From positions 246,698,001 to 246,762,000 of the forward strand of contig OZ024740.1 in the NCBI GenBank assembly GCA_964016885.1: a DNA stretch of 64,000 nucleotides. The letters run 5' to 3'. The stretch is from Eledone cirrhosa. Taxonomy: Eukaryota. Within the stretch, counting starts at the first letter, position 1; every line of letters begins with the position of its first letter. The notes beneath the pieces were generated by a model. It had not been told where the DNA came from. It saw only the letters and a list, made by a program, of their open reading frames with translations, and did no database searches. Positions 6,700 through 62,841 of the stretch are shown here, piece by piece. Both the position numbers and the translations under genes were made by a program.

Positions 6700-9600
6700 A
6701 CCACCACCACCACTTCCACAACCACTACCTCCACCACCACCACCTCCACCACCACGACTACTATCACCACTACCACCACCACCACCACCACCACGAACAC
6801 CACGAACACCACCAACATCACCACCACTACCACCACCACCACTACTATCACCACTACCATCACCACCACCACTACTATCACCACTACCATCACCACCACC
6901 ACTACTATCACTACAACCACCACCACCACTACTACTATCACCACCACCACCACTACTATGACCACTACCACCACCACCACCACTAGTATCACCACAACCA
7001 CCACCACCACTACTATCACCACTACCACCTCCACCACCACAACGAACACCACGAACACCACCAACATCACCACCACCACCACCACCACTACTATCACCAC
7101 TACCATCACCACCACCACTACTATCACTACAACCACCACCACCACTACTACTATCACCACCACCACCACTACTATCACCACTACCACCACCACCACTACT
7201 ATCACCACAACCACCACCACCACTACTATCACCACAACCACCACCACCAATACTATCACTACTACCACCACCACCACTACTATCACCACTACCACCACCA
7301 CTACTACTATCACCACTACCACCACCACCACTACTATCACCACTACCACCACCACCACTACTATCACCACTACCACCTCCACCACCACTACTATCACTAC
7401 CGGCACCACCACCACCACCACCACCAACCAGCACCACCAATACTATCACCACCACCACTACTATCACCACTACCACAACCACCACTACTATCAACGCTAC
7501 CACCACCACCACTACTATCACCACTAGCACCACGACCACCACTACTGTCACCACCGCCACCACCAACCACCACCACCATCACCACCACCACCACCACCGC
7601 CACCACAACTATCACCACCACCACTACTATCACCACCGCCACCACCACCACCACCACCACCACCACCTCCACCAGGACTACTATCACCACTACCACCACC
7701 AACACCACCACCATCACCACCACCACCACCACTACTATCACCACAACCACCACCACCACTACTATCACCACTACAACCACCACCACCACCACCACTACTA
7801 TCACTACCGCCACCACCACCACCACCACCAACCACCACCACCACCAACCACAACCACCACCACCGCCACCACAACCACCATCACCACCACTACTATCACC
7901 ACTACCACTACTATCACTACTACCACCACCACCACTACTATCACCACAACCACCACCACCACTACTATCACTACTGCCACCACCACCACTACTATCACCA
8001 CTCCCACCACCACTACTACTATCACCACTACCACCACCACCACTACTATCACCACAACCACCACCACCACTACTATCACCACTACCACCAACACCACCAC
8101 TACTATCACTACCGCCCCCCACCACCACCCACACCAGCAACCACACCACCATCACCGCCACCACTACTATCACCACTACCACCACCACCACTACCACCAA
8201 CACCACCACTACTATCACTAGCGCCCCCGCCCCCCACCGCCACCCACACCAGCAACCACACCACCATCACCACCACCACCGCCACCACTACTATCAGCAC
8301 TACCACCACCACCACCACCACCACCACGAACACCACGAACACCACCAACATCACCACCACCACTACTATCACCACTACCTCCACCACCACCACTACTATC
8401 ACCACTACCATCACCACCACTACTATCACCACCACCACCACCACCACCACTACTATCACCACTACCACCACCACCACTAGTATCACCACAACCACCACCA
8501 CCACCACCACTACTATCACCACCACCACCAACACCACCACTACTATCACCACTACCACCACCACTACTACTATCACCACAACCACCACCACCACTACTAT
8601 CACTACAACCACCACCACCACTACTATCACTACAACCACCACCACCACTACTATCACTACTACCACCACCACCACCACTACTATCACCACTACCACCACC
8701 ACTAATACTATCACCACTACCACCACCACCACTACTATCACCACTACCACCACCACCACTACTATCACCACCACCACTACTATCACCACAACCACCACCA
8801 CCACTACTATCACTACTACCACCACCACCCCTACTATCACCACTACCACCACGACCACCACTACTATCACCACCACCACCGCCACCAGAACTATCACCAC
8901 TACCACCACCACTACTATCACCACCGCCACCACCACCACCACCACCACCACCACCATGACTACTATCACCACTACCACCACCACCACCACCACCACCACC
9001 ACCACGACTACTATCACCACTACCACCACCAACACCACCACCATCACCACCACCACCACCACTACTATCACCACCACCACTACTATCACCACTACCACCA
9101 CCACCAGTACTATCCTCACTACCACCACCACCAGTACTATCAACACTACCACCACCACCACTACTATCACCACAACCACCACCACGACTACTATCACCAC
9201 TACCACCACCAACACCACCACCATCACCACTACCACCACCACTACTATCACCACCACCACTACTATCACCACTACCACCACCACCACTAATATCACCCCA
9301 ACCACCACCACCACTACTATCACCACTACCACCACCACCAGTACTATCCTCACTACCACCACCACCAGTACTATCAACACTACCACCACCACCACTACTA
9401 TCACCACAACCACCACCACCACTACTATCACCACTACCACCACCACCACTATTATCACCACCAGCGCCACCACTACTATCACCACAACCACCACCACCAC
9501 TACTATCACCACAACCACCACCACCAATACTATCACTACTACCACCACCACCACTACTATCACCACTACCACCACCACTACTACTATCACCACAACCACC

Positions 9601-10822
9601 ACCACCACTACTATCACCACAACCACCACCACCAATACTATCACCACTACCACCACCACCACTACTATCACTACAACCACCACCACCACTACTATCACCA
9701 CAACCACCACCACCACTACTATCACTACAACCACCACCACCACTACTATCACCACAACCACCACTACCACTACTATCACCACAACCACCACCACCACTAC
9801 TACTATCACTACCACCACCACCACTACTATCACTACAACCACCACCACCACTACTATCACCACAACCACCACCACCACTACTATCACCACTACCACCACC
9901 ACCACTATTATCACCACCAGCGCCACCACTACTATCACCACAACCACCACCACCACTACTATCACCACAACCACCACCACCAATACTATCACTACTACCA
10001 CCACCACCACTACTATCACCACTACCACCACCACTACTACTATCACCACAACCACCACCACCACTACTATCACCACAACCACCACCACCAATACTATCAC
10101 CACAACCACCACCACCACTACTATCACTACAACCACCACCACCAATACTATCACTACTACCACCACCACCACTACTATCACTACAACCACCACCACCACT
10201 ACTATCACCACAACCACCACCACCACTACTATCACTACAACCACCACCACCACTACTATCACTACAACCACCACCACCACTACTATCACCACAACCACCA
10301 CCACCACTACTATCACCACCACCACCACCACCAATACTATCACCACAACCACCACCACCACTACTATCAACACTACCACCACCACCAATACTATCACTAC
10401 TACCACCAACACCACTACTATCACCACTACCACCACCACCACTACTATCACCATTACCACCACCACCACTACTATCACCACTACCACCTCCACCACCACT
10501 ACTATCACTACCGGCACCACCACCACCACCACCACCAACCACCACCACCATCACCACCACCACCACCTTCGTCGCCACCACCACCACCGCCACCACAACC
10601 ACCATCACCACCACTACTATCACCACTACCACCACCACCACCACTACTATCACCACCGCCACCACCACCACCACCACCATCACCATTACTATCACCATTA
10701 CTATCACCACCACCACCACCACCACCACCACCACCACCACCACCACCACCACCACCATCACCACCATCACCACCACCATCACCACCATCATCACCACCAC
10801 CACCACCACCGCCACCGCCACC
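6700..10822. repeat. About 4.1-kb (ACC)n-derived compound minisatellite with a dominant 27-bp unit
   Basis: Unit of the form accaccaccaccactactatcacyacm. It reads as poly-T(8)I on +, and V(8)I or GGGGSGDSS on -. Rare variant blocks such as acgaacaccacgaacaccaccaacatc recur. Confidence 0.95.
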
Positions 10823-27484: not shown

Positions 27485-27636
<152 letters not shown>

Positions 27637-28692
27637 GGTTTCCTTCTATTGTCCCTTGTACACTTTGTCTATCTTTATGACTTCCTGTCATTTCTCTACT
27701 ACTGTAACGTATAACACAACTACTGTATCGTTTTCTTTGATACATGCATTCACGCTAGCTCGAAGTAGCTAGTAAGACAATTAATATACTGATAATTACT
27801 GTCACGATTTTATTAATCAATCTTCGATGTACCAACAAGTGAATTTTACTATTACAAAATAAACGTTGTCAACAACATCACAATTATTCATCATTCTTTT
27901 TATCATCTATCCTGCGAAGAATACATCTCAATAGTTACATGGACGTGACCCTATCGTTACACATCGCAACAAAAATCTTTTACAAATGGAGGTAACCCCG
28001 ACCCCGCCGCTTCCACTGAACAGAACATAAAAAAATGCCACCAACACTACTAACACTACAACAAACACTATCGCCAGCAACAACAACAGCACAAACAAAA
28101 TACGAAACCGAATAATAATTGTTCTACTTTTGACAGGAGGCCATCAATTATACACTACAGGTACTTTATTTTATCGACCCCGTAAGGTCGAAACCGAATA
28201 ATAATAAGTATAATACGGTGTATGTGTATGTGTGAAGGCGGTGAGTTTATGTTGAATCTTTGTTCTTATTTCGTTCACAAATTTTATTCCATCGTGTGGG
28301 TGGGGTGATTGCCTAGATGGCCGGAAATAATTTCTCTCAGAGAGATCGAGATCGGGCAAAGAACTTTTTCAAATATACAAAGTCATAATTTCTAATAAGC
28401 TGCAGGATTTCTTAAAATGGTGAAGAGAAAGAACAACTTAACTGTACTATAAATAGTATCATCCCTCTCCCGTTTTCTGTTAACATAAGAAAAGACGACA
28501 TAATGTTGCTGACCTTGAACCGGTTGTAAAAATCAACTAACACTATGTACATCAAAATTACTGAGAAGGAGAGGGAAGGTGGCAAAGACAAAAACAACAA
28601 AATCAGCAGCAACACTAGAGGAAGTTAGCTTCAATTTGCCAATCCTTTTTAAGGGTAAAAGATGAATAAATAAATAAATAAATAATAATAAT

Positions 28693-28817
28693 AGTTTTTG
28701 ATTTAGGCACACGGCCAACAATCTTTGGGGGATAAGAAAGTCGATTAAATCGACTCCAGTACATTACTAGTGCTTTATGTTATCAACCCAGAACATAAAA
28801 GGCCGTAACTCTATGCC
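28693..28817 (-). mobile_element. 5'-truncated SINE, main family, between AAT tracts
   Basis: ctggagtcgatttaatcgac...ggccgtgtgcctaaatcaaaaactattatt on the minus strand. Confidence 0.65.
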
Positions 28818-28873
<56 letters not shown>

Positions 28874-28875
<2 letters not shown>

Positions 28876-30577
28876 TTTCTTTATTGGCCACAAGGGCTGA
28901 CATCAAGAAAAACCTTACAGACGGCACAGGACGGTACAGAACGGAACGATATGGGTTTTGTGCGCGTAAATATTTTTATTATTTATATAAGAAAAGAAAA
29001 AAAAAGGACATAAAACATATATATATAAACAATAAAAATGAAAATTGAAACAATGAAAAATTCCCCAATAGAGGGGGGGGGGGACCTCCGAGGGTTACTC
29101 GTGGCGAAAACCACACAAAAGACCACGGCCACTCTGACCACCAAGGCAAGCGCCCTCTCTCAATTTTTCCATCTCTCAAACTACAGACGTATATTCAAAG
29201 TGGTCCCGTTCACTCGGACCATTCTCGCTACATTCACCCACCTTTCAACAAACTTGCTAGAAAGCAGCACTTGCCTCTCCACCCTCATTTTCCTCTTCAA
29301 GTGAAACTTGAAAAAGTTAATTAGGGATTCGCCGAAGAGGAAAGTGTTTGTCTTTAACCCTTTTAACCTTGTCCACCACACAATCTCTTTCGCCATGGGC
29401 ACCAGGCAGATGAAAACCACCTGCCCTTCCTCCTCGAGGGAAGACGGCGAGACCATCTGCACAATGGACTCAGTCGACAACCTGATCAGTCCCACACGCG
29501 ACAGCAACTGTTCGACATAGCTCCACAAGTCAGCAATGCTCGGGCACTGAACGAGTGCGTGCACAACGGTTTCGTCGCTATGCGTGCATCTCGGACAGGC
29601 TCGGCTGACGGCACTTCCGAGCCTGTAGAGCTTATCTCCAACCGGCAGCGCTCCCCAGTAGCACTGTCAGGCCAGGGATTTTTGGAAGTTATCCATAGGC
29701 CCCGGGCTGAAAGTTCTCCGGAAGAGAGCAAACAGCTGATCTTCTTCGACGCCCAGGATCTCTCCGAGAATGTCGTCGCTCTTCCCCTCCACTAGTCCTC
29801 TATAGAACGCCGAGGTGGATGTTCCACCGATACTGGTGCCAAACTGGGAGAGGGCAGTGAGCGCCTGGAGACATTCCAGTTTCCAAGCGCTATTCCTCGG
29901 TCTTTTTCTGACCCAGGACTGCAGCTCCGTCAAGGAGACGAGCTGTGGGAAAACGTGCCTGGCGAACGGCGACCACACCCGTTCACCATCAAGGAAGCAC
30001 CAGAGATGTCGCAGCCTCAGCGCATATTTGCGCATCATCAGCCATGGCATGCCCAGTCCTCCACGCAGCGGGTGTTGACAGCAGATAGATCGGCTGACCA
30101 TGGGAGGGCGTTCCTTCCACAAAAAGCGGAAGAGGAGGCGCTCCATTTTGGTGAGAGTTGGGCTGGAGCAAGCGACGACGGTGAGGCGATAGCAGATGAC
30201 GGATGCGATGTACGCATTCGCCACCTCCGCCCGGCCTTTCAGGGACAGCTTCCTCTCAGCCCATTTCTGGGTGAGGGAGGCCACCCTGCTCGACACCTCG
30301 TTCCAGTTTTTCTCCATCTGGAGGTCCGGTCCGAACCAGACCCCGAGCAATTTAACCGGTCCGTCCGTCCAATGCCCCACGACGCTGTCGGACGGCACGG
30401 ACTTACCTCTCCAGGTGCCGAACTGCAAGCCCACCGACTTTTCCTGGTTTATCTTTGCTCCTGTCACCTCCTCGTATTCCTTGAGAGCGGTGCCGAGCAT
30501 CTGGACGTGTCTGGTGCACGACACCACCACGGAGACGTCGTCAGCGTAAGCCGACTCGGATTTCCCGCATCCTAGTT
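28874..30577 (-). mobile_element. 5'-truncated Tx1-like LINE (from YADD to the 3' end)
   Basis: SAYADD, INQEKS, KLLGVWF, LSLKGRAEVANAYIAS, GGLGMP and a zf-RVT-like C-terminus; 3' end aataaagaaatc followed by (ATT)n. Confidence 0.9.
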
Positions 30578-30586
30578 AATAATAAT

Positions 30587-30770
30587 TGTTTCTACATTTG
30601 GCACAAGGCCAGCAAATACCCAGTGCATTACTGGTACTTTATTTTATCGACCCCGTAAGGATGAAAGGAAAAGTTAACCTCGGCGGGATTTGAACTCAGA
30701 ATGGAAAGGGCTGTAACTCTATGCGTCAAAGCATGGCGTCCGACCCTCTATCGATACTGCCATTCCACCT
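30587..30770 (-). mobile_element. SINE, main family, between two Tx1-like LINEs
   Basis: Full SINE body with short (AAT)n on both sides. Confidence 0.85.
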
Positions 30771-30779
30771 AATAATAAT

Positions 30780-33700
30780 GCTTTCTTTATTAACCACAAG
30801 TGTTTACATAAAGTAGACATTAAGGACAGTACAGGACAATACAGGACGGTACAAAAGGGCATTTCTGCGTGTAAAAAAACAAAAAAAACAGAGGATATAA
30901 TAATAGAACAATGAAAAAATTCCCCAATAGGGGGGAGACTTCCGAGGGACATTCGTGAAGAAAGCCCATTAAAAAGCCACAGTGAACCTGACCACCAGGG
31001 CAAGTGCCCTCTCCCAGTTTTCAACCTTTAATTTACAGACACATACTCAGAGTAGGCCATTCACTAGGGCCATTCTTGCCTCTCTCACCCATCTTTCAAC
31101 AAAATGCTGGGAAGAGAGCACTTCCCTCTCTACCCTGATTTTCCTTTTCAAATGAAATTTGAAAAAGTTAATCAGGGCATCACCGAAGAGGTAAGTGCTC
31201 GTCTTCAGCCCTTTCAAACGTGTCCACCATACTATCTCTTTCGCCATGGCCACCAGACAGATAAAAACTGCCTGCCCTTCCCGGATAAAGGAAGAGGGAG
31301 GGGCAATCCTCACGATGGACTCAGCTGATAGCTGGATCCGTCCTACACGCGACAGCAGGTGTTCGACATAAACCCACAAGTCAGCAATGCTCGGGCACTG
31401 GACGTGTGCGTGCAGGAGGGTTTTGTCGCCCTGCGCGCATCTCAGACATGCCCGGCTGACGGCACCTCCATGCCTGTAGAGTTTATCCCGAACTGGCAAA
31501 GCTCCTCGGTAGCACTGCCAGGCCAGAGATTTCTGGAAGTTGTCCATAGGCCCCGGCCCGAAAGTTCTTCCGAAGAGATTGGCTAGTTGATTTTCGTCAA
31601 CGCCTAGAGTTTCCCCAAGTACGTCGTCGCTCTTCCCCTCCACTAATCCTCTATAGAACGCCAATGTGGAGTTTCCACCGATCACATTGCCCGATTGGTC
31701 GAGGGCTGTGAGCGCCTGAAGACATTCCAGTCTCCAAGCGCTCCCTCTCGGTCTTCGCTTGACCCAGGACTGCAGCTCCGTCAAGGAGACGAGCTGAGGA
31801 AAGACGCGTCTAGCAAACGGCGACCACACCTGAGCACCGTTGAGGAAGAGGTGGAGATGTCGTAGCCTGAGCGCGTGTCTGCGCATTATCAGCCACGGCA
31901 TGCCCAGCCCTCCACGTAGCGGGTGTTGACAGCAGATGGACCGCCTGACCATCGGAGCGCGTCGCTTCCACAAAAAGCTAAAGAGCTAACGCTCCAGCGC
32001 AGTCAGGCGGGGCTTAGGACAAGGTACGACGGTCAGGCGGTAGTAGATGACGGATGCGATGTACGCATTCGCCACCTCAGCTCGACCTTTCAGGGATAGC
32101 TTCCTCTCCGCCCATTTCTGGGCGGAGCGGAAGCCACCCTGCTTGTCACCTCGTCCCAGTTTTTGTCCGTCTGGAGGTCCGGACCGAACCAGACCCCTAG
32201 CAATTTAACTGGTCCGTCCGTCCAGCGCCCGACGACTCTGTTGGACCTGCCTCTCCAGGTGCCGAGCTGCAGGCCCACTGACTTTTCCTGGTTGATCATT
32301 GCTCCTGTCACCGCTTCGTATTCTCTTAGTGTAGTGCCGATCGCCTCGATATGTTTGGCGTTCGACACCACTACGGTGACATCGTCCGCATATGCTGACA
32401 CGGATCTTCCGCATCCTAGTTCGCTCGTGACCCCCTCAACGTCTCCAGTTTGTGCAGTAATGGCTCAATACGTACAAGAGGGACGAGAGGGGACATCCTT
32501 GGCGGACCGAGCGCATAATGTTGAACGGTTCCGAAAGGTGACCGTTCACTCTCACCACAGAGCAGATGTCGCTGTGCATGGCAGCGATCCAGCCTCCGAA
32601 GACGGGCCCAAATCCAGCTGCCCTCAGGACTGCCGCTAGGTAACGATGGTCGACCCTATCGAAAGCTTTCGACTGATCTAAATTGATCAAGCACCCACCC
32701 GTTCCAGGTTCCCTAGCTACCCTCTCTACTATGTATCGCATGAGGTGGAGGTTGTCGTGGATGGATCTGTCGGGAATGATGCATGTCTGCGCCTCTCCCT
32801 CCAGACCACCAACGACAAGCGCCAACCTCTTTGCTAGCACCTTGGCCAAAATATTGAACTCTGTGTTTAGCAGTTATGGGCCTAAAATTATCTATGTTAT
32901 CCCCCTGGTTCGGATTCTTTCTCAGCAGCGCCACAGCTCCTCGGCTCACAGAGCTGCGAATTCTCCCTTTCTCTTGCCAGTTACAGTAGACGTCCGCCAA
33001 GAGGCCTCCGAACAAGTCTGGCATCTGTACGTAAAGTTCATAGGGCAGACCATCCAAACCAGGCGATTTACCCCTTGTGCAGCCAGTCATTGCCTCCCGT
33101 ACTTCAGCGGCTGTTATCGGCTTTTTGCAACACTCCGCCTAAGTGGCCGAGAGCCGCGGCAGTCCGTCGAGGTAGACACTAAAGTCCATCCCTCGATCGG
33201 TCCGCCGCTGCCCCCGAACAGCTGTGCGAAGTGTCGCTGAAAAGCTTCACACATTTGCCCGGGATCGAGTAGCATGCGCCCGTCGTGGTCCACCAAAGAC
33301 CGGATCGTGGATTTGTTGCCACGACGCGCCTCCGCCACTCGGGCCCATTGAACGGCTTTCGTCCCCTCATGTCTGAGAGCACGCACCCTAGCTCTGACAA
33401 CGCAGCCTTCGTGCTTTGCATTGAAGAATTGGTCAAGGGCCAATTTCGCCGCAAGTACGTCGATCGCGATGTCTTTGCTAAGCGCCACGTCTAATTTTCT
33501 AACTAGTTCTTCCTCTGCTCTATTTTTCTCTATTGCTAAAGCCTTACTAAACCTAATGGACTCTATTCTAATCGCTCTTTTCAGAGCAAACCACCACTTG
33601 TTGACAATGGCCCCCGTCAACGCCCGCTTAACTAGTTCGCTAATCCGGTCTCTGTAGGCCTTGCGCGCTGGTAAGGACGCGTTTAGCTTCCAGTAGCCAG

Positions 33701-36638
33701 CTCCTCGTCTATGAAGCCTGTCTAAGTCAAGCACACAGGTCACGAATTTGTGGTCCGTGTAGCTGACTATCTTGAATTGTGGACAGCCTATGCTAGACCT
33801 ATCTATTTACCTACAAAATACTCTATCTAGATATGATCTGGATGACCCTATGCGATTTGTCCACATTGGCACATTCGGGAAATCCAATCGGTAACTGTCA
33901 GACAGTTCAAAACTCCTGAGCAGGTTGGTGAGGCTCTTGTACCCTCCTCCCCTATCCGCTAATCCCACACAGTCCCAGCGTGCATCTAAGATCCCGTTCC
34001 AGTCGCCCACTAACACTAAAAAGAGGGACGTTCCAAGAAAGGTCTCCAGACGCCGGAAGAAATCGGGCCGCCCTGCTCCTGTCGGGGCAAAGACGGCTAC
34101 TAGCCTGAAAGCTTGCCCATCTCCGCTGGTCACGTCCAGCACCACCAACTTACCCTCTGGGTCCAGGAAGATGGCCCGTTTGGCGAGATCCAAACCTCTC
34201 CAAAAAAGCACAGCAACTCCTCCCCCCGATCCAAGACGGCTGGGAGATGCGTACACATCGTAGCCGCCGAAGATCGGTGCGAAGGCCCGTGCTTCGGAAA
34301 TTCTTGTCTCGCTGATAGCCACTGCATCTATGTTCAGTGACCTGAGGTCGTTGAGCAGGTGGCCCTGCTTCTATGACGACCCCAAGCCAGGCGCATTTAT
34401 GCTGCCTATTCTGAGTGAGGTCATGTTGAAATGGAGTGGAAAAGATGGGAAAAACCACTTACCTTACTTCTCGTAGAGGAAGGATGGTTTCTCCATCCTT
34501 TTCACTGCATCTGGCCTCCTCCGGAAGGATGTCCTTATAAATCCTCCTGGAGAGTGCTTGTCGGAACTCTCCGATGTCTTTGGGGAATTTTTGTTTTAGT
34601 GTCGTGTACGTTTTCTGTGTGATGCGAGTGATTTGTATGTGTGGAGGTGGTGTGAACTTTTGGGTTGTTGTGTAGTCTTTTTCTGTGATGCTGGTGTAGT
34701 GTTGGATGTAGTGTAATAATTGGTTGTTGTTCAAATTTATTGCTGTGTAGTGTGTATCGTTTTGGTTGTTTTGTTTTGTTTGCATTTGTTGTGGGTTTGT
34801 TTCTGTTTCGCTTTTTGGTAACTTTTGCGGTGTTGGTGATGGTGGTGTTGGGGTTAATGATGGTGATGGTGTTGGTGTTGGTGGTGATGGGGTTGGTGAT
34901 GCTGGTGTGGATGGTGGCATAGCTGTCCTAACTTTTTTGTTTGATAGTTTATTTGTTTCCCTCTGTATTTTGTTTTTGGAGGGAGAAGGAAGGGGATGTT
35001 TTCTTTTTTGGTTTCTTTTTCTTTTTTTCTTTTTTTCTGATACCATTTCCCACTCCTCGTCGTCACAATGTGTCTCCAGTTGCGATAGGTCGGGGAGTGG
35101 AAAATCCTCCACAGGCGTTGGTTTTGGTTGTGGCGTGGTGGATGGTGTAGGCGCTGGTGCTAGTTCTGGCGCGTTGGGTGGTGGTGGTGTTGGTTTTGCT
35201 ACTGTTGCTGGGGTTGTTGCTGTTACAGTTGCTTCTGTTGTTGCTGCTACAGTTGTTGCTGCCATTTCTGCTGCTGGTGGTGTTGATGGTTGAGTCACTG
35301 GGGTGGGTAAGAGAGGTGGCCTCAACCTTTTAGCCTGAGGGGAGAAAGCCCTTAGGTGGGTTCCTTCACCACAAATGACACAGCTAGGCCTTCTGCCCTC
35401 GACGATTACGGTGAGGTGACTGCCGTCAGTGAGGTCTATTACCTCTGGGATCTCCTCAATGCTTTTTTGGTCCGCTTGGATCAGGAGCTCCATCCCAGAT
35501 CCGGACCAGTTCTCCTGCTTTTCTTTCGCTATTTCGATTATCTTGGTGTTGGCTTCGATGCCGGCGAGGACGGCAGCCATTAGCCAGCGAATTTCGATGG
35601 CCGGTGGAACGTTGGTCACCCTGATCTTCACGAGTCTCTGGCCACAACAGCTTGGGACGAGTGTGGAGTCGTCATTTCTTAATGGGTCCATGGATTGTTC
35701 TCTGGCCTCCTGTGGTGTTTCAAAGAACACGTTCACGGTTCCATATTTCTGCCCACGTCTGATGTGGGTTTTTTTTTGCCCACACATGTCCCAAAGCTTT
35801 TTGGATTTTGGACTCGGATGCCCGTTCCACTCGGCGCGATTTTATATTAATCGTCCGATAAGACACGATGCATAGGCGCCGATTCTCCATTTTATTAGGT
35901 GTGTGTGTGTGTGCGGGGGTGGGGGGGGGGGGGGTGACCCTGTACCCATCTTTCTTTACCATTTTTTTTGGCTTCTTCTAATTCCTCCTGAGTTACCTGG
36001 TATGCTTCGCAATGTTTCGCTACTCTGGCAAAAGACAGGGTTTTCTTATTCTCATTGTTGCTGTTGTTGTTATCGTTATTTTTGTTATTGTTAATTTTAG
36101 TTTCAGTTGTGGTGGTGGTGGCGTCAGTGGTGTTCGGTGTGGAAGAGTTCATTTTGGCTGAATTCGTTTCGATATCACGAGATAATATATTTTTTTTTTG
36201 TTTCTGTTGTTGCTGTGGTGGTGGTGGGGGTGGCGGCTTCAACACCTGCAGTCATTGGTAATGGTGGGAAATGATTGTCTGCCTGAGACAAATTAAAAAT
36301 ATTGCTACTGCTTATATTTTTAGTGTTGGCAAACGTAGTAATATTTACAATGGTGGTGTCGGTGTGAGGTGTTAGTTTGTGAGGAAGGCTCTCAGTTACT
36401 GGGTTCAGCTGTGAGTCGGCCATGATTTTTCAAAGAATTTTTTTTTGTTTGATAATTATAAAAGTTTAAATTTTGGGGTCAAGGCCCCAATCTTTTTGAG
36501 TGTCCTTTTCAGAAATCAATGTATGTGCACTTATATACAGTTAACAATAAAAATTTTCCATAAATGGCAATTTTAAACAACTGAAAATAACAAATCTTTG
36601 CGGAGCTCACGATAATACGATTTACTACGTAGGTCGCC
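30780..36638 (-). mobile_element. Apparently full-length (~5.9 kb) Tx1-clade LINE, ORF1 plus ORF2 (APE-RT-zf), disrupted
   Basis: ORF1 from 36423 with knuckle CVICGEGTHLRAF(S)P; ORF2 from about 34424 with APE motifs SINA.GL, AISET, GDWNG, SYLDRVF, TDHK and GYWKLN; RT motifs GKSPGLDGLPYE, LDQSKAFDRVDH, SVRQGCPLS, YADD; (ATT)n at both ends. Confidence 0.92.
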
Positions 36639-36663
36639 AATAATAATAATAATAATAATAATA

Positions 36664-39403
36664 GGAAGCATCCGACGCAGACAATGATCTGAATGCTGAC
36701 ATAGATAACATCTGTAACAAAGATACGGCCATTGAGGAAATGAATGCTGACGGGCTAGGACAAGATTTTGTTGATATCCTAAACTTAGTGGTAGATTAAA
36801 TGAACAATGATAGTGGAAAACCTATGAACCTAAGATTTGTAGACAGGAAAAAGTTAAAATAAACAACAGCTAAGGTAAACAAAGTCATCTCATACCTTGA
36901 GGCGAGGAACCTTCACCAATGCAACAATATCCTGAAAGCAACAGCAAATGAGGTGAGGAAATTACTTGGCATAAAAACGATAGGAAACAACAAACAAGAA
37001 AGATCAGAACCTTGGTGGAAGAAACGACTGAATGGTCAAATCAGGGAAATGAGAAATGACATTGTAAAGCTTGAGTCCTTACTGAATGGGATATTACAAA
37101 ACATAGACACTAAAAATAGATTCGAAATAGAGAACAAAACTAGGGGGAAAAAGCTAAATATTATCATAGAGGAACTGAAGTAACGCATTGTAGCAAAGAG
37201 TGCAAAGATTGGGCGGTATGAGAGCAGAGTCAGTCAGTATAGACAGAACCGCATGTTTGACAACAACCAGAAGATGTTTGGGTAGCTTTAAGGGAAAGAA
37301 AGAGGCAACAACTTGATCCCTGAGGCGGAACAGACTAAGACATTCTGGAGAGGAATATGGGAGAATGATGTTGAACATAATGATCAGGCAGTGTGGATTG
37401 AGACAGTACAAAAGGAGATTAGTGAACAAGCACACCAACAAACTGATTTAAGTATCACAGTTGAAACTCTTAAAGGGCAGGCCAGAAAACTAACCAACTG
37501 GAAATCACCAGGCGAAAATGGTGTGCAGGGGTATTGGATTAAAAATATAACATTGAAAGACCGAATCAAGGCTAATGATGTTACCAACTATAGACCTATC
37601 ACATGTCTATCCGTAATGGGGAAACTGTTAACAAGCATTGTGTCTGAGGAAATCTACCATCACCTCCACACAAACAACTTGTTACCGGACCAACAGAAAG
37701 GATGCCGAAAGAAGTCCCGTGGTACAAAATACTAGCTACTTATTGATAAGATGGTAATGAGGAATTGCAAGAGGAGACACACTGGTCTTGCCATGGGATG
37801 GATAGACTACAAAAAGGCATTCGACATGGTACCTCATTCTTGGATAACCAAAGGCCTAGAGTTCTTCAAGGTGGCAGATAACATCAGACAGTTGTTGAGC
37901 ACAATTAAGAAGTCCTGGGAAACAGAATTAACATCGGGTGGAGAATCCTTGGGAGGCATGAAGATCAAGAGAGGTATCTTCCAGGGAGATAGTTTGGGAA
38001 GAGTGAGAAGGAGTTGGATGTACTTGTTGACACTGTCCGTATTTTTAGCAGTGATATATGTATGCAATTTGGTATTAATAAGTGTGGAGTCCTTGTGATG
38101 AAGAGGGGTAAATTGAGCAGAAGCAACGGAATCCTGGTACCAACAGGTGAGATGATAAAGGAAATTGACACTGAAGAAGGATACAAATATTTAGGTGTTC
38201 TGGAGGCAGATGACATCAAGAACAAAAAAAAAGAAGGAATTGATAAGATCTGAGTACATTAGGAGAGTAAGGAGGGTATTAAAATCACATCTAAATAGTA
38301 GGAATGTCATAAGTGCAGTGAATTCAAGAGCTGTGTCTATTATTAGGTACAGTGCGGGAATTCTGAGATGGAATGTTGCTGAACAAAAAGAAATGGATAG
38401 GAAGACTAGGAAGCTATTGAGTATCTACAACATGTTCCACAAGAGGAGTGATGTCGATAGACTCTACTTAAGGAGGTCTGAAGGTGGAAGAAGTCTTATC
38501 AGCATAGAGGACTGTGTTCAGATGGAGAAAAACCACCTGCACAAATACGTGACCGACAGTAGGGAGCCAATGCTCAGAATTGTACTGAAGGAGAAGACAA
38601 TAGGCCAGGGGATGTCCAAGGAGGAAGAGCAACCTTCATGAAAAATCCCTTCATAGTACCTTCTTTGAGAAAACTGAATTTAGAGATCCACAGACATGGA
38701 ACTGGTTAAAAAGAGGAGACCTTAAAAAGGCTACAGAAGGAATGCTAATGGCTGCGCAAGAGCAGGCACTCAAAACGAAGTGGGTGAAACACCATATTTG
38801 CAAGGAGGAGGCTAGCCCACTGTGTAGGATCTGTGGAGGGAGGAGACTGTGGCTCACATTGTATCCCAGTGTAAACACCTAGCCCAGGCTCACTATAAAG
38901 GCTGGAGACATGATGTGATGTGCAGGGTGATCCACTGGCACCTATGCAAAGTAAACAATTTACCACATTCTGAGAAGTGTTATGAGCATAAGCCAGAGTT
39001 GGTGATAGAAAATGATCAGGTGAAGGTGCTATGGGATTTTAGGATACAGACGGATAAGAAACTGGAACACAATAGGCCTGACCTGGTGGTTTTGGACAAG
39101 GAAAAAAGATTGTGCCTGATTGTAGATGTAGCCTGCCCATTCGCCACGAGATTGCAAGAAAAAGAGAGGGAGAAAATTAACCGATACCAGGACTGAAAGT
39201 GGGAGGTAAAAAGGATTTGGAACTGTCATGAAGTCAGAGTCGTCCCGATTGTCATCGGCGCACTAGGTACTATCTCAAAGAGTTTCCAAGGATGGTTAAA
39301 GAAAGTTAGTCCAGCCCCGCTTTTTGGAACACTTCAAAAGGCATGCTTGCTGGGAGCAGCAAGAACCCTCCGATACGTCCTGAATATCTGAGGCTGCAGG
39401 TAG
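36664..39403 (+). mobile_element. 5'-truncated R4/Dong-like LINE, family A, copy 1
   Basis: [48 protein letters not shown]...HIVSQC, NRPDLVVLD...IVDVACP; internal deletions; starts after (AAT)n. Confidence 0.92.
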
Positions 39404-39666
39404 CGGTACCGTCAAACTGCACATTTAAACCTGGCGGAGTTCATCCCTCTTCAGGTCTGAACACAGCCATTTTTTTTTCTATATAGGAAGAATCAACCTA
39501 TAGAGGAAGAATGGACCCCAGTAATGGACTGGTACTTTTTTTTATCAACCTCGAAAGGATGAAAGGCAGAGTTGACCCCGGTGGGATTTGACTGAGAGCA
39601 ATGTGTTGGGACGAATATCGTAAAGCATTCTTCCGACATCTTAACGACTCGGCCAATTCGTCGCCT
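39404..39666 (-). mobile_element. SINE with the main-family head and an alternative 3' tail
   Basis: Head ggcgacgaattggccgagtcgttaag...ctttcatcctttcgagg; tail ggctgtgttcagacctgaagagg shared with 46730-46810. Confidence 0.7.
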
Positions 39667-39861
39667 ATCTTTATATATACATATTTACTTGTATATATAT
39701 TTGTAGATATATATATGCACAAAAATGGAATTAGGCATAATTACATCTTCAAGAAGATGCCTCACATTCATTCACTATCGATAGAGAGAAAGAGAGAGAG
39801 AGAGAAAGAGAGAGAGAGAAAGAGAGAGAGAGAGAAAGGGAGAGAGAGAGAGAGAGAAAGG

Positions 39862-39946
<85 letters not shown>

Positions 39947-41736: not shown

Positions 41737-41861
<125 letters not shown>

Positions 41862-41864
41862 CAC

Positions 41865-41914
<50 letters not shown>

Positions 41915-41922
<8 letters not shown>

Positions 41923-54864: not shown

Positions 54865-56855
54865 TTGTCTAGGAAGTCTATGTCGATCTCACAGATCACA
54901 AATTTGTGGTCTGTGTAGTCGACTATTTTAAATTGTGGACAACTTATACTAGCCTTATCTAGTTCTCTGCAGAATACCCTATCGAGATACGATCTGGATG
55001 ACCCGACGCGGTTTGTCCATGTCCACATTGGCACATTCGAGTGATCCAGTTGATACCTGTCAGATAATTCAAAACGTCTGAGCAGGTTGATGAGGCTCTT
55101 TCACGCTCCTCGCCTATCCACTAGCCCCACACAATCCCAGCGTGCATCCAAGATCCCGTTCCAGTCGCCCACTAACACTAAAGGGCGGAAACGTTTCAAG
55201 AAAGGTCTCTAGACATCTGAAGAAATGTGGCCGTCCTGCCTCAGATGGGGCGTAGACGGCTACTAGCCTGAAAGCATTGCCTTCGCTGCCGGTCACGTCC
55301 AGCACCACCGACTTACCTTCTGCGTCCAGGAAGATGGCCCGTATGGCGAGATCCAAGCCTCTCCGAAAAAGGACGGCAACCCCTCCCCCAGATCCTGGAC
55401 GTCTGGGAGATGCGTATACATCGTAGCCACCGAAGATCGGTGCGAAGGCTCGTGCTTCGGAGATTCTGGTCTCGCTGATGGCCACCACATCTATGTTTAG
55501 TGATCTGAGGTCGTTGAGAAGGTGACCCTGCTTCCAAGATGACCTCAGGCCACGTGCATTTATACTGCCTATTCTAAGTACGGCCATGTTGGATGAGAAA
55601 CGGTGGTGAAGGGACAGTAGAACCGTCCCTTTGGCTGGTCATGGGGGTTCCAAGAGGATGTCAGTGTATATCCTCTTGGTAACCGACGCTCTGAAGTCTC
55701 CAACTGCGTAAGAGAATTTTTGTTTTAAAAGTTTGTACTGTTCTATTTTGATATCAATGATGCTTATGTTTGTCGGGAGAGTTCTTGGTGTTGGTGGGGT
55801 GTAGTATTTTTTCCTGTGATGTCTGTGTGCTGCTTTATATATTGTATGAGTTCTTTATTTGCCATGTTTATGGCTGTGTACATTTTTGGGGGGAGGGGTG
55901 ATTTTGTTCCTGTTTTCTTCTTGTTGCATTGGGTGTGTGTGTTTTGTTGTGTTTCCGCTGTTGGTGTTTTTGGTGATGCTGGTGGTGGTGTGGTTGTTGT
56001 TGGGGGGTGGTGCTTGTGGTGGTGATGGTGGTGGTGTTGCTGCAAGTTTCCTTGCTGCCTTTACCCCTCTTTGTTTGCCTTCGCTTTTGGAAGGTGTAGC
56101 TAAGGGTTTTTTTGTTTTTTTTTTCGTGGCAGACCGTTTGCTACTTCTCTCCCGCCTCAGACTCCATGTCGGATTCCGTGGCGTCTGGGAGGGGTATGTG
56201 CCCCACGGCTGTTGGTGGTGGTAGTGGAGCTCTCTTCGGCAATTTTGTTGCTGGTGCAGCTACTTCAAATGAAGCTACGTGTGTTGCCGCCTCTGATGCT
56301 GCTGCTTTAGTTGTCCGTGGCTTTGGTACGGGTGCCACGGATGTTGCCCTCCTACTCACCGTGGAAGGGGCTTCTGCGTTTGTTGCCTGCCCTGCTCTTG
56401 GTAGCAGCGGGCCAGGTATTGGAAGGAGAGGGGCCTTCTTCTTCGCTGTCTTCTGCGGGAAAAAGGCCCTGAGGTGACCCATTGACCCACAGAGATAACA
56501 TTTGTGCGCCTTCTTTCCACGCTGATAGGGAGTTGGAATCCTTCCTCGAGGTCTATGATATCGAGGATAGCGTCGATACATTCCTGGTCAGTTTGTATAA
56601 GCATTTGCATACCTATACCTGACCAGTTCTCTCTCCCTATTTTTTCTACTTGCAGCCTGGTCGTCCTGTCCTCGATTCCAGACGCAGGGACAGACGCGGC
56701 CAGCCAAGGTATGGGCACGTCGGGTGGGACCTGGGTCACTTTGATCCTCACAATTTTCTGCCCGCAGTAGGAGGGAACCAAGACTATCTCCTCACTTTTT
56801 AGGGTTTCCAAAGAATGAGACTTCGCTTCTTGGGGGTGGCGAAAAGTACGTCTAC
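54865..56855 (-). mobile_element. Tx1-like LINE 5'/internal piece: ORF1 plus APE domain, lacking RT
   Basis: ORF1 LVPSYCGQKIVRIKVTQVPP and CYLCGSMGHLRAFFP; ORF2 start MAVLRIGSINARGL...AISETR...SYLDRVF...YTDHK. Confidence 0.88.
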
Positions 56856-56983
56856 TGTGCAACAAGTCGAAAAATTATAGAACAGAACACAGACAAAAAC
56901 AAATGCAACAACAAAGTAAAAACAAATTTCAAAAGTTTTGAACGCAATTACCCCTACTTCCCTCGTAGCTAATATCAAAAACA

Positions 56984-57014
<31 letters not shown>

Positions 57015-57107
57015 CACTGGTAACCGATGTTACTGGCCTTGAAAAACAAAAAGGAAAAAAACAAACAAAAAAACTAAGTCAGACATTCAAACATTACAAT
57101 GAAACTT

Positions 57108-60100
57108 AAGAACCAACTGGAAGAAAGAATTGAATAGAACTGTTATGCAATGTTACCTGAAGAGTAACCCCAAGGAAAAAGGCTATAGGAAACGGATGCA
57201 TAACATCTGGAACGAGATTGGTCTATTTAAATTAGATGAACAACATTGACCGGGCAGGCTCGAGTAATAAGAACTAATGGATAGATAAGCGAGCTGGAAC
57301 TGGAGGAACTGAGCAGAGAGATTAGGTTGGAAATGGAGAGTGGAATATGTCAGGCAAACGAGCCAGTGGGATATGAAGGGGAAAAGATTGAGAGAACGGA
57401 TGAACCATCCGAAGCAGACAATGATCTGAATGCTGACATAGATAACATCTGGAACAAAGATACGGCCATTGAGGAAATGAATGCTGACGGGCTAGGACAA
57501 GATTTGGTTGATATCCTGAACTTAGTGGTAGATGAAATGAACAATGATAGTGGAAAACCTATGAACCTAAGATTTGTAGACACGAAAAAGTTAAAAGAAA
57601 CAACAGCTAAGGTAAACAAAGTCATCCGATACCTTGAGGCGAGGAACCTTCACCAATGCAACAATATCCTCAAAGCCACAGCAAATGCGGTGAGGAAATT
57701 ACTTGACATAAAAACGAAAGGAAACAACAAACAAGAAAGATCAGAACCTTGGTGGAAGAAATGACTGAATGGTCAAATCAGGGAAATGAGAAATGACATT
57801 GTAAAGCTTGAGTCCCTACTGAATGGGACATTACAAAACGCAGACATTAAAATAGATTGGAAATAAAGAACAAAACTAGGGGGAAAAAGCTAAATATTAT
57901 CATAGAGGAACTGAAGCAACGTATTGTAGCAAAAAGTGCAAAGATTAGGTGGTATGAGAGGAGAGTCAGTCAGTATAGACAGAACCGCATGTTTGACAAC
58001 AACCAGAAGATGTTGTTTGCACAGCTTGAAGGGAAAGCAAGAGGCAACGACGTGATCCCTGAGGCGGAACAGACTAAGACATTCTGGAGAGAAATATGGG
58101 AGCAGGATGTTGAACATAATAGTCAGGCAGTGTGGATTGAGACAGTAAACAGGAGATTAGTGAACAATCACACCAACAAACTGATTTGAGTATCACAGTT
58201 GAAACTCTTGAAGGGCAGGCTGAAAAACTAACCAACTGGAAATCACCAGGCCCAGATGGTGTGCAGGGGTATTAAAAATATAACCCCCCCCCCCCCCCCC
58301 CGAAACTGACAACCATGTTCAATGACTGTTTGATGTCGGGTGAGGTACCAGAGTGGTTGACAAAGGGTACTACAGTCCTGGTAATGAAAGACCGAATCAA
58401 GGGTAATGATGTTACCAACTATAGACCTATCACATGTCTATCCGTAATGGGGAAACTACCATCACCTCCACATAAACAACTTGTTACCGGACGAACAGAA
58501 AGGATGGCGAAAGAAGTCCCATGGTACAGAAGACCAGTTCCTTATTGATAATATGGTAATGAGGAATTGCAGGAGGAGACACACTGGTCTTGCCATGGGA
58601 TGGATAGACTACAAAAAGGCATTTGACATGGTACCTCATTCTTGGATAACCAAAAGCCTAGAGATCTTCAAGGTGGCAGATAACATCAGACAGTTGTTGA
58701 GCAAAAGTATGAAGTCCTGGGAAACAGAGTTAACATCGGGTGGAGAATCCTTGAAGATCAAGAGAGGTATCTTCCAGGGAGATAGTTTGTCCCCTCTGCT
58801 GTTTATCCTTGTCCTGATATCTCTGACCATTATATTCCGTAAAGTGAGAGCAGGATACAAGTTGAGATAAGGAGAGCTTACCATCAATCACCCCTCTTCA
58901 TGGACGATCTTAAACTCTTTGGGAAGAGTGAAAAGGAGTTGGATGTACTTGTTGACACTGTCCGTATTTTCAGCAATGATATATGTATGGAATTTGGTAT
59001 TAATAAGTGTGAAGTTCTAGTGATGAAGAGGGGTAAATTGAGCAGAAGCAACGGAATCCAGGTACCAACAGGTGAGATGATATAGGAAATTGACACTGAA
59101 GAAGGATACAAATATTTAGGTGTTCTGGAGGCAGATGACATCAAGAAGAAGGAAATGAAGGAATTGATAAGATCTGAGTATATTAGGAGAGTAAGGAGCG
59201 TACTAAAGTCACATCTGAACAGTAGGAATGTCATAAGTGCAGTGAATTCCCGAGCTGTGTCTATTATTAGGTACAGTGCGGGAATTCTGAAATGGAAAGT
59301 TGCTGAGCAAAAGGAAATGGATAGGAAGACTAGGAAGCTATTGACTATCTACAACATGTTCCACAAGAGGAGTGATGTCGATAGACTCTACTTAAGGAGA
59401 TCTGAAGGTGGAAGAGGTCTTATCAGCATAGAGGGCTGTGTTCAGATGGAGAAAAACAACCTGCACAAATACGTGACTGACAGTAGGGAGCCAATGCTCA
59501 TAATTGTACTGAAGGAGAGGACAATAGACAAGGGGATGTCCAAGGAGGAAATAACAACAAGGAGGAAGAGCAACCTTCATGAACAATCCCTTCATAGTAC
59601 CTTCCTTAAGAAAACTGAGATCCACAGACATGGAACTGGTTAAAAAGATGAGACCTTAAAAAGGCTACAGAAGGAATGTTAATGGCTGCGCAAGAGCAGG
59701 CACTCAGAACGAAGTGTGTGAAACACCATATTTACAAGGAGGAGGCTAGCCTACTGTGTAGGATCAGTGGAGAGAGAGAGTAGACTGTGGCTCACATTGT
59801 ATCCGAGTGTAAACACCTAGCCCAGGCTCACTATAAAGGCTGGAGACATGATGTGATGGGCAGGGTGTTCCACTGGTACCTATGCAAAGTAAACAATTTA
59901 CTACATTCTGAGAAGTGTTATGAGCATAAGCCAGAGTCGGTGATAGAAAATGATCAGGTGAAGGTGCTGTGGGATTTTAGGATACAGACGGATAAGAAAC
60001 TGGAACACAATAGGCCTGACCTGGTGGTTTTGGACAAGGAAAAAAGATCGTCCCTGATTGTAGATGTAGCCTGCCCATTTGACACGAGAGTGCAAGAAAA

Positions 60101-60406
60101 GGAGGGGGAGAAAATTAACCGGTACCAGGACTTAAAGTGGGAGGTAAAAAGGATTTGGAACTGTCATGAAGTCAGAGTCGTCCCGATTGTCATAGGCGCA
60201 CAAGGTACTATCTCAAAGAGTTTCCAAGGATGGTTAAAGAAAGTTAGTCCAGCCCCGCTTTTTGGAACACTTCAAAAGGCATGCTTGCTGGGAACAGCAA
60301 GAACCCTCCGATACGTCCTGAATATCCGAGGCTGCAGGTAGCAGCTTGATATTCATTTCAACAAACTTTCCAGTTAAATAACTTCAATGACTGAGACTCA
60401 AAGAAC
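57108..60406 (+). mobile_element. Near-complete R4/Dong-like LINE, family A, copy 2
   Basis: N-terminal WKKELNRTVMQCY...GYRKRMHNIW, RT (FQGDSLSPLLF, FMDDLKL), CCHC and RLE (NRPD...VDVACP); short 3' UTR then (AAT)n. Confidence 0.92.
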
Positions 60407-60442
60407 AATAACAAAAATAATAATAATAATAATTATAATAAT

Positions 60443-60920
60443 GATTTCTTTATTAACCACAAGGGTTTACATAAAGTAGACATTAAGGACAGTGCAGGAC
60501 AATGCAGGACGGTACAAATGGGCATTTCTGCGTGTAAAAAACAAAAACAGAGGATGTAACAAAAAATAACAATGAAAAATTCCCCAATAGGGGGCAGACT
60601 TCGGAGGGACATTTGTGGAGAAAGCCCAGTAAAAAGCCACAATGACCCTGACCACCAAGGCAAGTGCCCTCTCCCAGTTTTCTACCTTTAATTTACAGAT
60701 ATATACTCAGAGTAGGCCCATTCACTCGGGCCATTCTTGCTTCTCTCACCCATCTTTCAACAAAATGCTGGGAAGAGAGCACTTCCCTCTCTACTCTGAT
60801 TTTCCTTTTCAAATGAAATTTGAAAAAGTCAATCAGAGCATCACCGAAGAGGTAAGTGCTCGTCTTCAGCCCTTTCAAACGTGTCCACCATACTATCTCT
60901 TTCACCATGGCCACCAGGCA
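60443..60920 (-). mobile_element. Tx1-like LINE 3' fragment, close to the 30780-36638 element
   Basis: KEIVWWTRLKGLKTSTYLFGDALIDFFKFHLKRKIRVERE plus the same 3' UTR; (AAT)n on both sides. Confidence 0.9.
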
Positions 60921-60950
60921 TAATAATTATAATAATAATAATAATAATAA

Positions 60951-61529
60951 GCATTTTGTCCTGCCCCATCAAAAGAATTGGTGGGAGCATCAACTACCTC
61001 CCATACTTGAAAAAGATCACATCTCAATCTTGTGGAACTTTAGCATCCAAACAGACCGAAAAATAGATGCAAATAGACCTGATATAATATTGAAGGACTT
61101 TAAAAAGAGGGTATGCCTGCTAATTGATATGTCTGTTCCAATAGACAAGAATGTATCTATAAAAACATTTGAAAAATTGAGCAAGTATGAGGACCTGGAG
61201 ATAGAAATTGGAAAAATGTGGAAATTGAGAACTAAAACAATACCAGTGGTTGTAGGCGCTCTGGGAATGATACATAAGGGGTCTAATGATTACTTATCGC
61301 AGATCCCAGGAAACCCGCGTATAGGAGAAATACAAAAGATAGTACTAATGGGAACTGCCCATATACTAAGGAAGATTCTGTCAATATAAGTACATCACAA
61401 GTCTAAACACTAAAGATGCATGTGTGAGTATGTATGTTCTTCCTTGAACATGGCGGACCTTGTCTCTTGAGTTCACTGGTTGTGACTTGGTGATAACTCG
61501 TATGAACATAAAGCAAGATAAATGCAACT

Positions 61530-61530
<1 letters not shown>
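60951..61530 (+). mobile_element. R4/Dong-like 3' fragment (RLE domain plus 3' UTR), family C
   Basis: ILWNFSIQTDRKIDANRPDIILKD...LIDMSVP...EKLSKYEDL...IPVVVGALG; followed by a long (TAA)n. Confidence 0.88.
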
Positions 61531-61624
<94 letters not shown>

Positions 61625-61625
61625 T

Positions 61626-61808
61626 GTTTCTACTTTTGGCACAAGGCCAGCAATTATCCCAGTACATTACTGGTACTTTATTTTATCGACCCCGTAAGGA
61701 TGAAAGGCAAAGTTAACCTCGGCGGGAATTGAACTCAGATCGTAAAGGGACGTAACTATGCTGGAAAGCATGTCCGACCCTCTGCCGATACTGCCAATTC
61801 CCCGCCCT
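61626..61808 (-). mobile_element. SINE, main family, inside an (AAT)n tract
   Basis: Full SINE body with AAT repeats on both sides. Confidence 0.88.
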
Positions 61809-61831
61809 TAATAATAATAATAAGAAGAAGA

Positions 61832-62734: not shown

Positions 62735-62741
62735 TAATAAC

Positions 62742-62841
<100 letters not shown>

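Follow-up and report, generated by a model that had tools for sequence, protein, structure and literature searches.

A retroelement stack on AAT microsatellites of Eledone cirrhosa, with LINEs of two endonuclease types and a SINE

We analysed a window of 64,000 nucleotides (nt) from the genome of Eledone cirrhosa (genome size 3.0 Gb; assembly GCA_964016885.1, contig OZ024740.1, positions 246,698,001-246,762,000 of the forward strand). In this window, long interspersed nuclear elements (LINEs) of two endonuclease types and a short interspersed nuclear element (SINE) are stacked on AAT-type microsatellites. The LINE found on the minus strand has an apurinic/apyrimidinic-type endonuclease (APE) and is called APE-LINE below; the LINE found on the plus strand has a restriction-like endonuclease (RLE) and is called RLE-LINE. 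From 28665 to about 39405, the window holds nothing but retroelements and AAT-type repeats. This region, stack 1, is composed of the following parts, listed with their strand and with the open reading frames (ORFs) where relevant.

28665-28692, no strand: (AATA)5(AAT)4 run at the left edge, which reads as the ATT tail of a minus-strand SINE fragment
28695-28817, minus strand: SINE fragment of 123 nt, 5'-truncated, from an older related subfamily, recognised from its flanks and from alignment to the 183-nt SINE
28818-28873, no strand: (AAT)18 array (18.7 units), separating the 5' side of the SINE fragment from a LINE tail
28874-30575, minus strand: 3' 1.7 kb of an APE-LINE of subfamily b, 5'-truncated, recognised by self-BLAST and a zf-RVT domain
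30577-30585, no strand: TAATAATAA (TAA3), separating the 5' junction of the truncated LINE from the 3' end of a SINE
30587-30769, minus strand: full-length SINE of 183 nt without an ORF, ending in ...GTAGAAACA and then ATT units
30770-30779, no strand: TAATAATAAT (TAA3), separating the SINE 5' end from the 3' end of the full-length LINE
30780-36638, minus strand: full-length APE-LINE of 5,859 nt, with a 5' untranslated region starting GGCGACCTACG, ORF1 and ORF2, the reading frames being broken
36639-36663, no strand: (AAT)8, on which two elements meet head-to-head, the minus-strand LINE with its 5' end and the plus-strand RLE-LINE with its 5' junction
36664 to about 39405, plus strand: RLE-type 'Dong-like' LINE of 2.7 kb, cut at both ends and without an (AAT)n tail

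The order, the strands and the near absence of intervening DNA over about 10.7 kb had been described in an earlier reading made from the letters of the window (the sequence-only reading). All three are present, with 0-5 residual bases between neighbouring parts that belong neither to an element nor to an AAT run. Two of its entries need amending. The leftmost one, given as a SINE, is SINE-related and on the minus strand, but it is truncated and belongs to an older, related subfamily: two of its segments align to the 183-nt SINE at 81-85%, and it has 20 matches at 73-87% identity in sampled loci. The Dong-like LINE said to end the stack is present on the plus strand with AAT at its 5' side, but its own 3' end and tail are missing. 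When aligned with two further copies of the window, it proves to be 5'-truncated and to lack the final ~75 nt and the (AAT)n tail. According to these copies, the true 3' end of the family lies ~75 nt past 39403 and is followed by (AAT)n. The right edge of stack 1 is therefore not an AAT array. Just past the truncated RLE-LINE, positions 39405-39650 contain unrelated sequence and a minus-strand fragment of a different SINE-like subfamily, whose 3' region ends in an A-rich run and not in ATT. This sequence may mark the event that deleted the RLE-LINE 3' end. The truncated APE-LINE at 28874-30575 is 79.8% identical to the full-length copy of stack 1 by self-BLAST.

In Pfam searches, the minus-strand LINE matches Exo_endo_phos, RVT_1 and zf-RVT, both in the window copy and in intact relatives of ~1145 residues. 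ORF2 thus has the layout of the L1 group, with an N-terminal APE, a reverse transcriptase (RT) and a C-terminal Cys-His motif. Its closest solved relative is human L1 ORF2p, with a match at E 6e-26 that spans APE and RT. Translations of ORF1 show a CX2CX4HX4C knuckle, and Pfam matches no family in ORF1 of the window copy or of the relatives. ORF1 of the Tx1 clade is of the RRM plus CCHC-knuckle type. Two distant protein matches (E 8e-28 and 4e-17) were named 'Transposon TX1' automatically, a label too unspecific to decide the clade. Target-specific insertion, a common but not universal feature of the Tx1 clade, is seen here as ATT arrays at both junctions. From its predicted domains, the minus-strand LINE is an APE-type element of the L1/Tx1 group. 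The narrower names used in the sequence-only reading, Tx1 for this LINE and Dong for the plus-strand one, are provisional clade labels. The stack 1 copy is 91-94% identical to 17 other copies. Many copies (loci L063, L077, L081 and L129-L138) carry internal deletions of 80-2500 nt instead of a simple 5' truncation.

The plus-strand LINE matches RVT_1 in Pfam. Its C-terminus contains an RPDLVV...D motif, with which solved R2 proteins align in their restriction-like endonuclease (E 0.0035). An intact relative, P0096 (1158 residues, 60% identical), matches RVT_1, zf-RVT (weakly; CCHC) and HSDR_N_2 (weakly; PD-(D/E)XK), and shows no APE. A single ORF in which RT is followed by CCHC and a PD-(D/E)XK-like endonuclease, with no APE, is the domain order of Dong/R4 elements. 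A further mark of this group, (TAA)n both as the site of insertion and as the 3' end, is found as well. Among the 120 matches listed, no relative carries a family name, and the sole solved relatives are the R2 proteins. By its predicted domain order, the plus-strand LINE is of RLE type. Copies are ~88-96% identical in pairwise comparisons, and their 5' untranslated region is heterogeneous, with ~76-nt internal repeats.

To examine the APE-LINE junctions, genome searches used the first 200 nt (5' flanks) and the last 250 nt (3' flanks) of the element as queries, and the 40 best-scoring of 1150-2400 candidates per query were taken as family loci. An ATT array lies directly upstream of the 5' end in 30 of 30 loci, 29 of them besides the window's own. 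The sequence-only reading would have been in difficulty had the 5' flanks proved random, with ATT as a 3' tail only; they are not random. The junction has the phase ATT/G in 28 of 30 loci (ATT/GGCGACC type, the slash marking the junction). The upstream arrays have 3 to more than 23 units, and the DNA past them is unique in some cases and in many belongs to an older LINE or SINE, of which it is the 3' end. On the other side, the 3' flank starts with ATT in 29/29 loci and with ATTATT in 27/29; for unselected copies present in other loci, ATTATT comes first in 19/20. We refetched 20 whole copies, 17 of which are complete. Each of the 17 lies between two ATT arrays, and none is surrounded by a unique-sequence target duplication, as judged by eye. 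Ten copies have their truncation point within the locus, and ATT stands at the start of 6 to 7 of them; three apparent truncations are internal deletions. As background, ATTATTATT starts at 0.17% of positions, counted on both strands in 466 kb of sampled loci, yet it is found at every LINE end examined. The pattern is thus far beyond chance. Two loci ~194 kb apart, L005 and L006, contain full-length LINEs sharing an identical unique 5' flank, which suggests a segmental duplication and not independent insertions.

The 3' ends of the RLE-LINE run into AAT-type repeats in 29 of 29 copies; at the 5' truncation junctions, AAT is found in 15 of 20. More than half of the copies (16/29) lie tail to tail with an APE-LINE or SINE of minus orientation. 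The longest copies start near ...AACGCACATGGTGG and have AAT arrays in front of them, which frequently form the tail of a different copy. The AAT repeat is also used by at least one further RLE-LINE family. This one carries an RPDIILKD...D motif, is 40% identical in amino acids to P0096 over the RLE domain and has 14 matches in sampled loci. Its truncated copies again begin at AAT; the window copy is 5'-truncated at (ATA)7.

A random sample of the genome (40 stretches of 10 kb, 400 kb in all) contains 52 arrays of four or more units. Contacts between arrays and elements were labelled by BLAST, giving 27 contacts after one low-complexity false match was dropped. In 25 of these 27, the polarity is the same: the sense strand of APE-LINE and SINE is the ATT strand, with ATT ends, and that of the RLE-LINE is the AAT strand, with AAT ends. 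The two exceptional contacts belong to one SINE whose own flanks start with ATTATT. This copy, in locus L185, was considered as a polarity violation and ruled out, as it has a duplication, ATTATTAATAATAATAATA. Informative APE-LINE 5' junctions are ATT in 5/5 cases, and 3' ends agree in 7/7; the corresponding counts for AAT at the RLE-LINE are 6/6 and 4/4. Loci L148, L193 and L198 repeat the head-to-head layout of stack 1, in which a short AAT run separates the LINE 5' end from the RLE-LINE 5' junction. APE-LINE sequence covers ~19 kb of the sample by hand count, SINE sequence 7.2 kb and RLE-LINE sequence 10.1 kb. The raw APE-LINE coverage, 31.9 kb, is inflated by a low-complexity satellite (L202) and by short matches in L185. 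A long low-complexity tandem region with strong strand skew (GC skew to -0.95) is also present in the window at 6788-10820, as it is over the whole 10 kb of L202. The window region gives many BLAST matches at 72-81% to a ~89-nt GGTGGT-like stretch of the LINE ORF1 region (34829-34917) and is either a satellite or an expanded ORF1 repeat. Such low-complexity matches inflate naive LINE coverage estimates.

With these counts, we hold with confidence that LINE insertion is target-specific and polarity-fixed in (AAT)n/(ATT)n. That an APE-type and an RLE-type LINE share one repeat in fixed opposite orientations, as the sequence-only reading proposed, is borne out by the repeat on both flanks of each. 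Orientation relative to AAT, which might have turned out random, is fixed: the APE-LINE and the SINEs always have their sense strand on ATT, and both RLE-LINE families always have theirs on AAT. The same reading assumed opposite orientation rules. The orientations are indeed opposite, but no separate rule is needed, because the tails differ, (AUU)n on APE-LINE and SINE and (AAU)n on the RLE-LINEs, and account for the polarity.

The window contains another stack of the same kind at 57-63 kb, which differs from stack 1 in its flanks and in element order:

57000-60415, plus strand: nearly full-length RLE-LINE copy, the start being approximate, then (AAT)6 at 60416-60433
60445-60920, minus strand: APE-LINE 3' 476 nt, tail to tail with the preceding RLE-LINE copy; the 5' junction of this APE-LINE adjoins (ATA)7 (60929-60949)
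60950-61530, plus strand: 3' 581 nt of the second RLE-LINE family, then (TAA)31 at 61531-61623
61625-61801, minus strand: SINE copy, placed tail to tail against the second RLE-LINE family, with (TAA)5 on the SINE 5' side at 61809-61823
61833-62741, plus strand: 3' 0.9 kb of the first RLE-LINE family, then (AAT)33 at 62742-62840

A further minus-strand APE-LINE copy, at 54876-56870, is 83.5% identical to the stack 1 LINE over 716 nt and adjoins the 5' region of the RLE-LINE copy whose approximate start is ~57000. The region of stack 1 is generally microsatellite-rich, with dinucleotide repeats nearby: (AC)73 at 27487-27633, (AG)82 at 39783-39946, and (CA)53 then (AT)36 at 41740-41917.

The 183-nt element of the window is a SINE in the usual sense, a short non-coding retroposon with target duplications, and is 95-97% identical to its best 39 genomic copies, a level of identity close to those of the two LINE families. 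Neither a tRNA nor an Rfam family was found in the SINEs of the 28-40 kb region (ARAGORN; Rfam at E up to 0.1). The segment GAGTTCAAATCC has B-box-like letters and may be a B box. The 3' ends of SINE and LINE have in common CCTTGTG..AA..A.GAAA, about 18 of the last 27 columns, and an ATT tail; a better-matching LINE was not searched for. This resemblance suggests that the APE-LINE may mobilise the SINE. We studied the junctions of 75 near-full copies in sampled loci, seeking duplications within 10 nt of the 5' end. The 3' flank starts with ATTAT in 64 of them, and only 20 have three or more ATT units there. A target duplication of 8-30 nt is present in 38 of the 75 copies and starts with ATTAT in 34 of these 38. 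Duplications with unique sequence number 32, whereas shuffling flanks between copies gives 5.3 on average and 11 at most. The base preceding the duplication is C or T in 27/29 cases, and A and T are favoured at -3 and -2. The minimal SINE site is about ATY/ATTAT(T), that is, two to three imperfect units. The window has a small case of such an ATTAT-first duplication: at 28111-28205, a 72-nt SINE 3' fragment on the minus strand lies inside a 17-nt duplication, ATTATTATTCGGTTTCG on the element strand. The sequence-only reading had the SINE share the landing pad of the LINEs. Its sense strand is indeed on the ATT strand, but it is not bound to microsatellites: it uses a Y/ATTAT site and makes unique-sequence duplications.

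Stack 1 likely grew by repeated target-specific insertion into one microsatellite, and the repeat is likely a shared landing site renewed by each insertion. The junctions can be placed in the standard model of target-primed reverse transcription. A SINE duplication starting with ATTAT implies that the opposite strand is nicked, leaving ...ATAAT-3'OH. The APE enzyme would nick the AAT strand, and the ...ATAAT-3'OH end left there would pair with the (AUU)n tail of the RNA. For the RLE enzymes, the nick would fall on the ATT strand, which would prime (AAU)n tails, and the two LINE types would thus enter the same duplex from opposite directions. Each insertion would split the array and not another element, with part of the old array upstream and the new tail downstream, so that one pad would become two. 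The tails of earlier inserts would become the commonest targets, giving head-to-tail, tail-to-tail and head-to-head stacks. Because LINEs are always inside arrays and phase-exact, and the SINE is not, the LINE probably needs an array holding both nicks, or joins its 5' end through ATT homology, perhaps via read-through transcripts. The SINE would be content with about two to three imperfect units. That every insertion regenerates the pad, as first proposed, fits the array present on each side of the LINEs; the SINE is not array-bound. It is quite possible, though not to be presumed, that the AAT microsatellite is a self-renewing niche for both endonuclease types, one strand each, where the LINEs escape a copy ceiling and make most long arrays.

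Alternatively, the true target may be a short ATTAT-type motif, the elements themselves making the flanking arrays through their tails, 5' read-through of ATT and slippage. The SINE duplications that start with ATTAT at array-free sites, and the scarcity of longer ATT runs next to them, agree with this idea. So does the distribution of arrays, as those of at least seven units adjoin one of these elements in 11 to 12 of 17 cases in the random sample, and those of at least five units do so in 7/7 cases in the window; the fixed phase ATT/GGCGACC would suit RNA-templated ATT units. However, the 5' arrays of widely varying length often follow directly on an older LINE or SINE at its 3' end, as insertion into an existing tail predicts. 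In addition, no unique duplication brackets array, LINE and array in any of the 17 complete copies, and 5 of the 17 long arrays of the random sample touch no such element, so free arrays exist. We consider a short-motif target unlikely. It also overlaps with insertion into arrays, as element tails are the next targets in both.

Another possibility is that unequal or ectopic recombination among dispersed AAT arrays joined elements that had been inserted elsewhere. The arrays are frequent and mutually homologous, direct-repeat recombination keeps polarity, and L005 and L006 show that whole-locus duplication occurs. Recombination nevertheless leaves unexplained both the exact ATT/GGCGACC start beside the array in full-length LINEs and the truncated copies of both LINE types that start at the repeat. 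Moreover, the window stacks have different flanks and orders, and truncation points are unique to each junction. This origin appears very improbable. Finally, random insertion of elements merely tailed with ATT or AAT, piled up by chance or selection in a gene-poor region, would give the repeat at every 3' end, which by itself is uninformative on the target, and is hardly credible in view of the repeat at the 5' flank of 29/29 full-length APE-LINEs and 15/20 truncated RLE-LINEs against the 0.17% background, counts with which the random sample agrees.

Several points weigh against array-targeted insertion by the LINEs or limit its reach. The SINE enters short sites outside arrays, so that the enzyme alone does not require a microsatellite. 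The 5' junction lacks AAT in 5 of 20 RLE-LINE copies, and lacks ATT in 3 to 4 of the 10 truncated APE-LINE copies. The best-scoring family loci are biased toward window-like copies; the random sample is small (400 kb), and its RLE-LINE sequence comes mostly from one locus, L198. None of the 17 end-to-end APE-LINE copies has an intact reading frame, which leaves present-day activity unsupported. The steps of the mechanism follow the standard model, with nick strands and positions deduced from junctions. No empty, pre-insertion site was seen, and the array length before insertion is deduced.

LINEs specific for microsatellites are already known. Dong elements insert into TAA microsatellites (PMC3812793), and Tx1-clade families (Kibi on TC, Koshi on TTC, and crocodilian Tx1) target (TC)n, (TTC)n, (TTCC)n and (TTTC)n (PMC4494074, PMC3812793). 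The background given in the sequence-only reading for Dong, Kibi and Koshi is therefore in print in these sources. Some families of HERO, another RLE clade, are described as targeting microsatellites (PMC4640811). TRAS and SART enter (TTAGG)n in opposite directions, and SART1 needs about three repeat units (PMC7265360). L1-Tx1 and R4-Dong annotations exist in molluscs (PMC10294476), and L1/Alu tails are reported to seed microsatellites (PMC3812793).

The elements of E. cirrhosa resemble each of these systems in part. With Dong of Bombyx mori, DongAg and DongBg (R4 clade), the plus-strand LINE shares the RLE type, AAT/TAA at both junctions and a single long ORF in intact relatives. It differs in that there are at least two families here, only 40% identical in the endonuclease domain, and in their abundance (~10 kb of 400 kb, mostly in one locus). 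Kibi, Koshi and crocodilian Tx1 are, like the APE-LINE, APE-type LINEs in a set microsatellite, the APE-LINE having APE, RT, CCHC and the repeat on both sides. Here, however, the target is (ATT)n and the copy number reaches several per cent of a random sample. In function, the polarity rule and the short site needed by the SINE are most nearly matched by TRAS and SART of Bombyx mori. Those two are both of APE type (R1 clade), end in poly(A) and occur only at telomeres, whereas here two endonuclease types are involved, each tail consists of the target repeat and the arrays lie scattered over the chromosomes. Mammalian L1, whose human ORF2p is the closest solved relative of the APE-LINE ORF2, and Alu share with our elements tails that seed microsatellites and, as the 3' ends suggest, a SINE using LINE machinery. 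A further likeness is a duplication that starts, after a pyrimidine, with bases complementary to the RNA tail (Y/ATTAT here). The L1 target site is TT/AAAA. L1 ends in poly(A) and enters A-rich targets almost at random, whereas the present LINE occurs in ATT arrays only and joins them in exact phase at its 5' end. A literature search, with Repbase, figures and supplements outside its reach, found no published APE-type LINE targeting (ATT)n and no published case of APE-type and RLE-type LINEs sharing one microsatellite. What appears to be new is (ATT)n as the target of an APE-type LINE and its strand-partitioned co-occupancy with RLE types. The stack stands out by the abundance of its elements and by its probably self-renewing target.

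Target-specific LINEs are usually rare, as their targets (rDNA, snRNA genes, telomeres) are few. When the target is of the same type as the element's own tail, the niche grows with each insertion. With thousands of candidate copies, and several per cent of the 400-kb random sample, these families would, if our reading is correct, be strictly target-specific LINEs with a per-cent-level share of a 3-Gb genome. The locus would also provide a side-by-side comparison of an APE-type and an RLE-type enzyme on one simple duplex, with the SINE showing the minimal site. It raises testable questions: how many units each enzyme needs, how 5' ends are joined in phase, and how far retroelements make their own microsatellites. 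For annotation, it would account for AAT arrays as hotspots of nested repeats, which assemblies and repeat maskers will see as composite "families".

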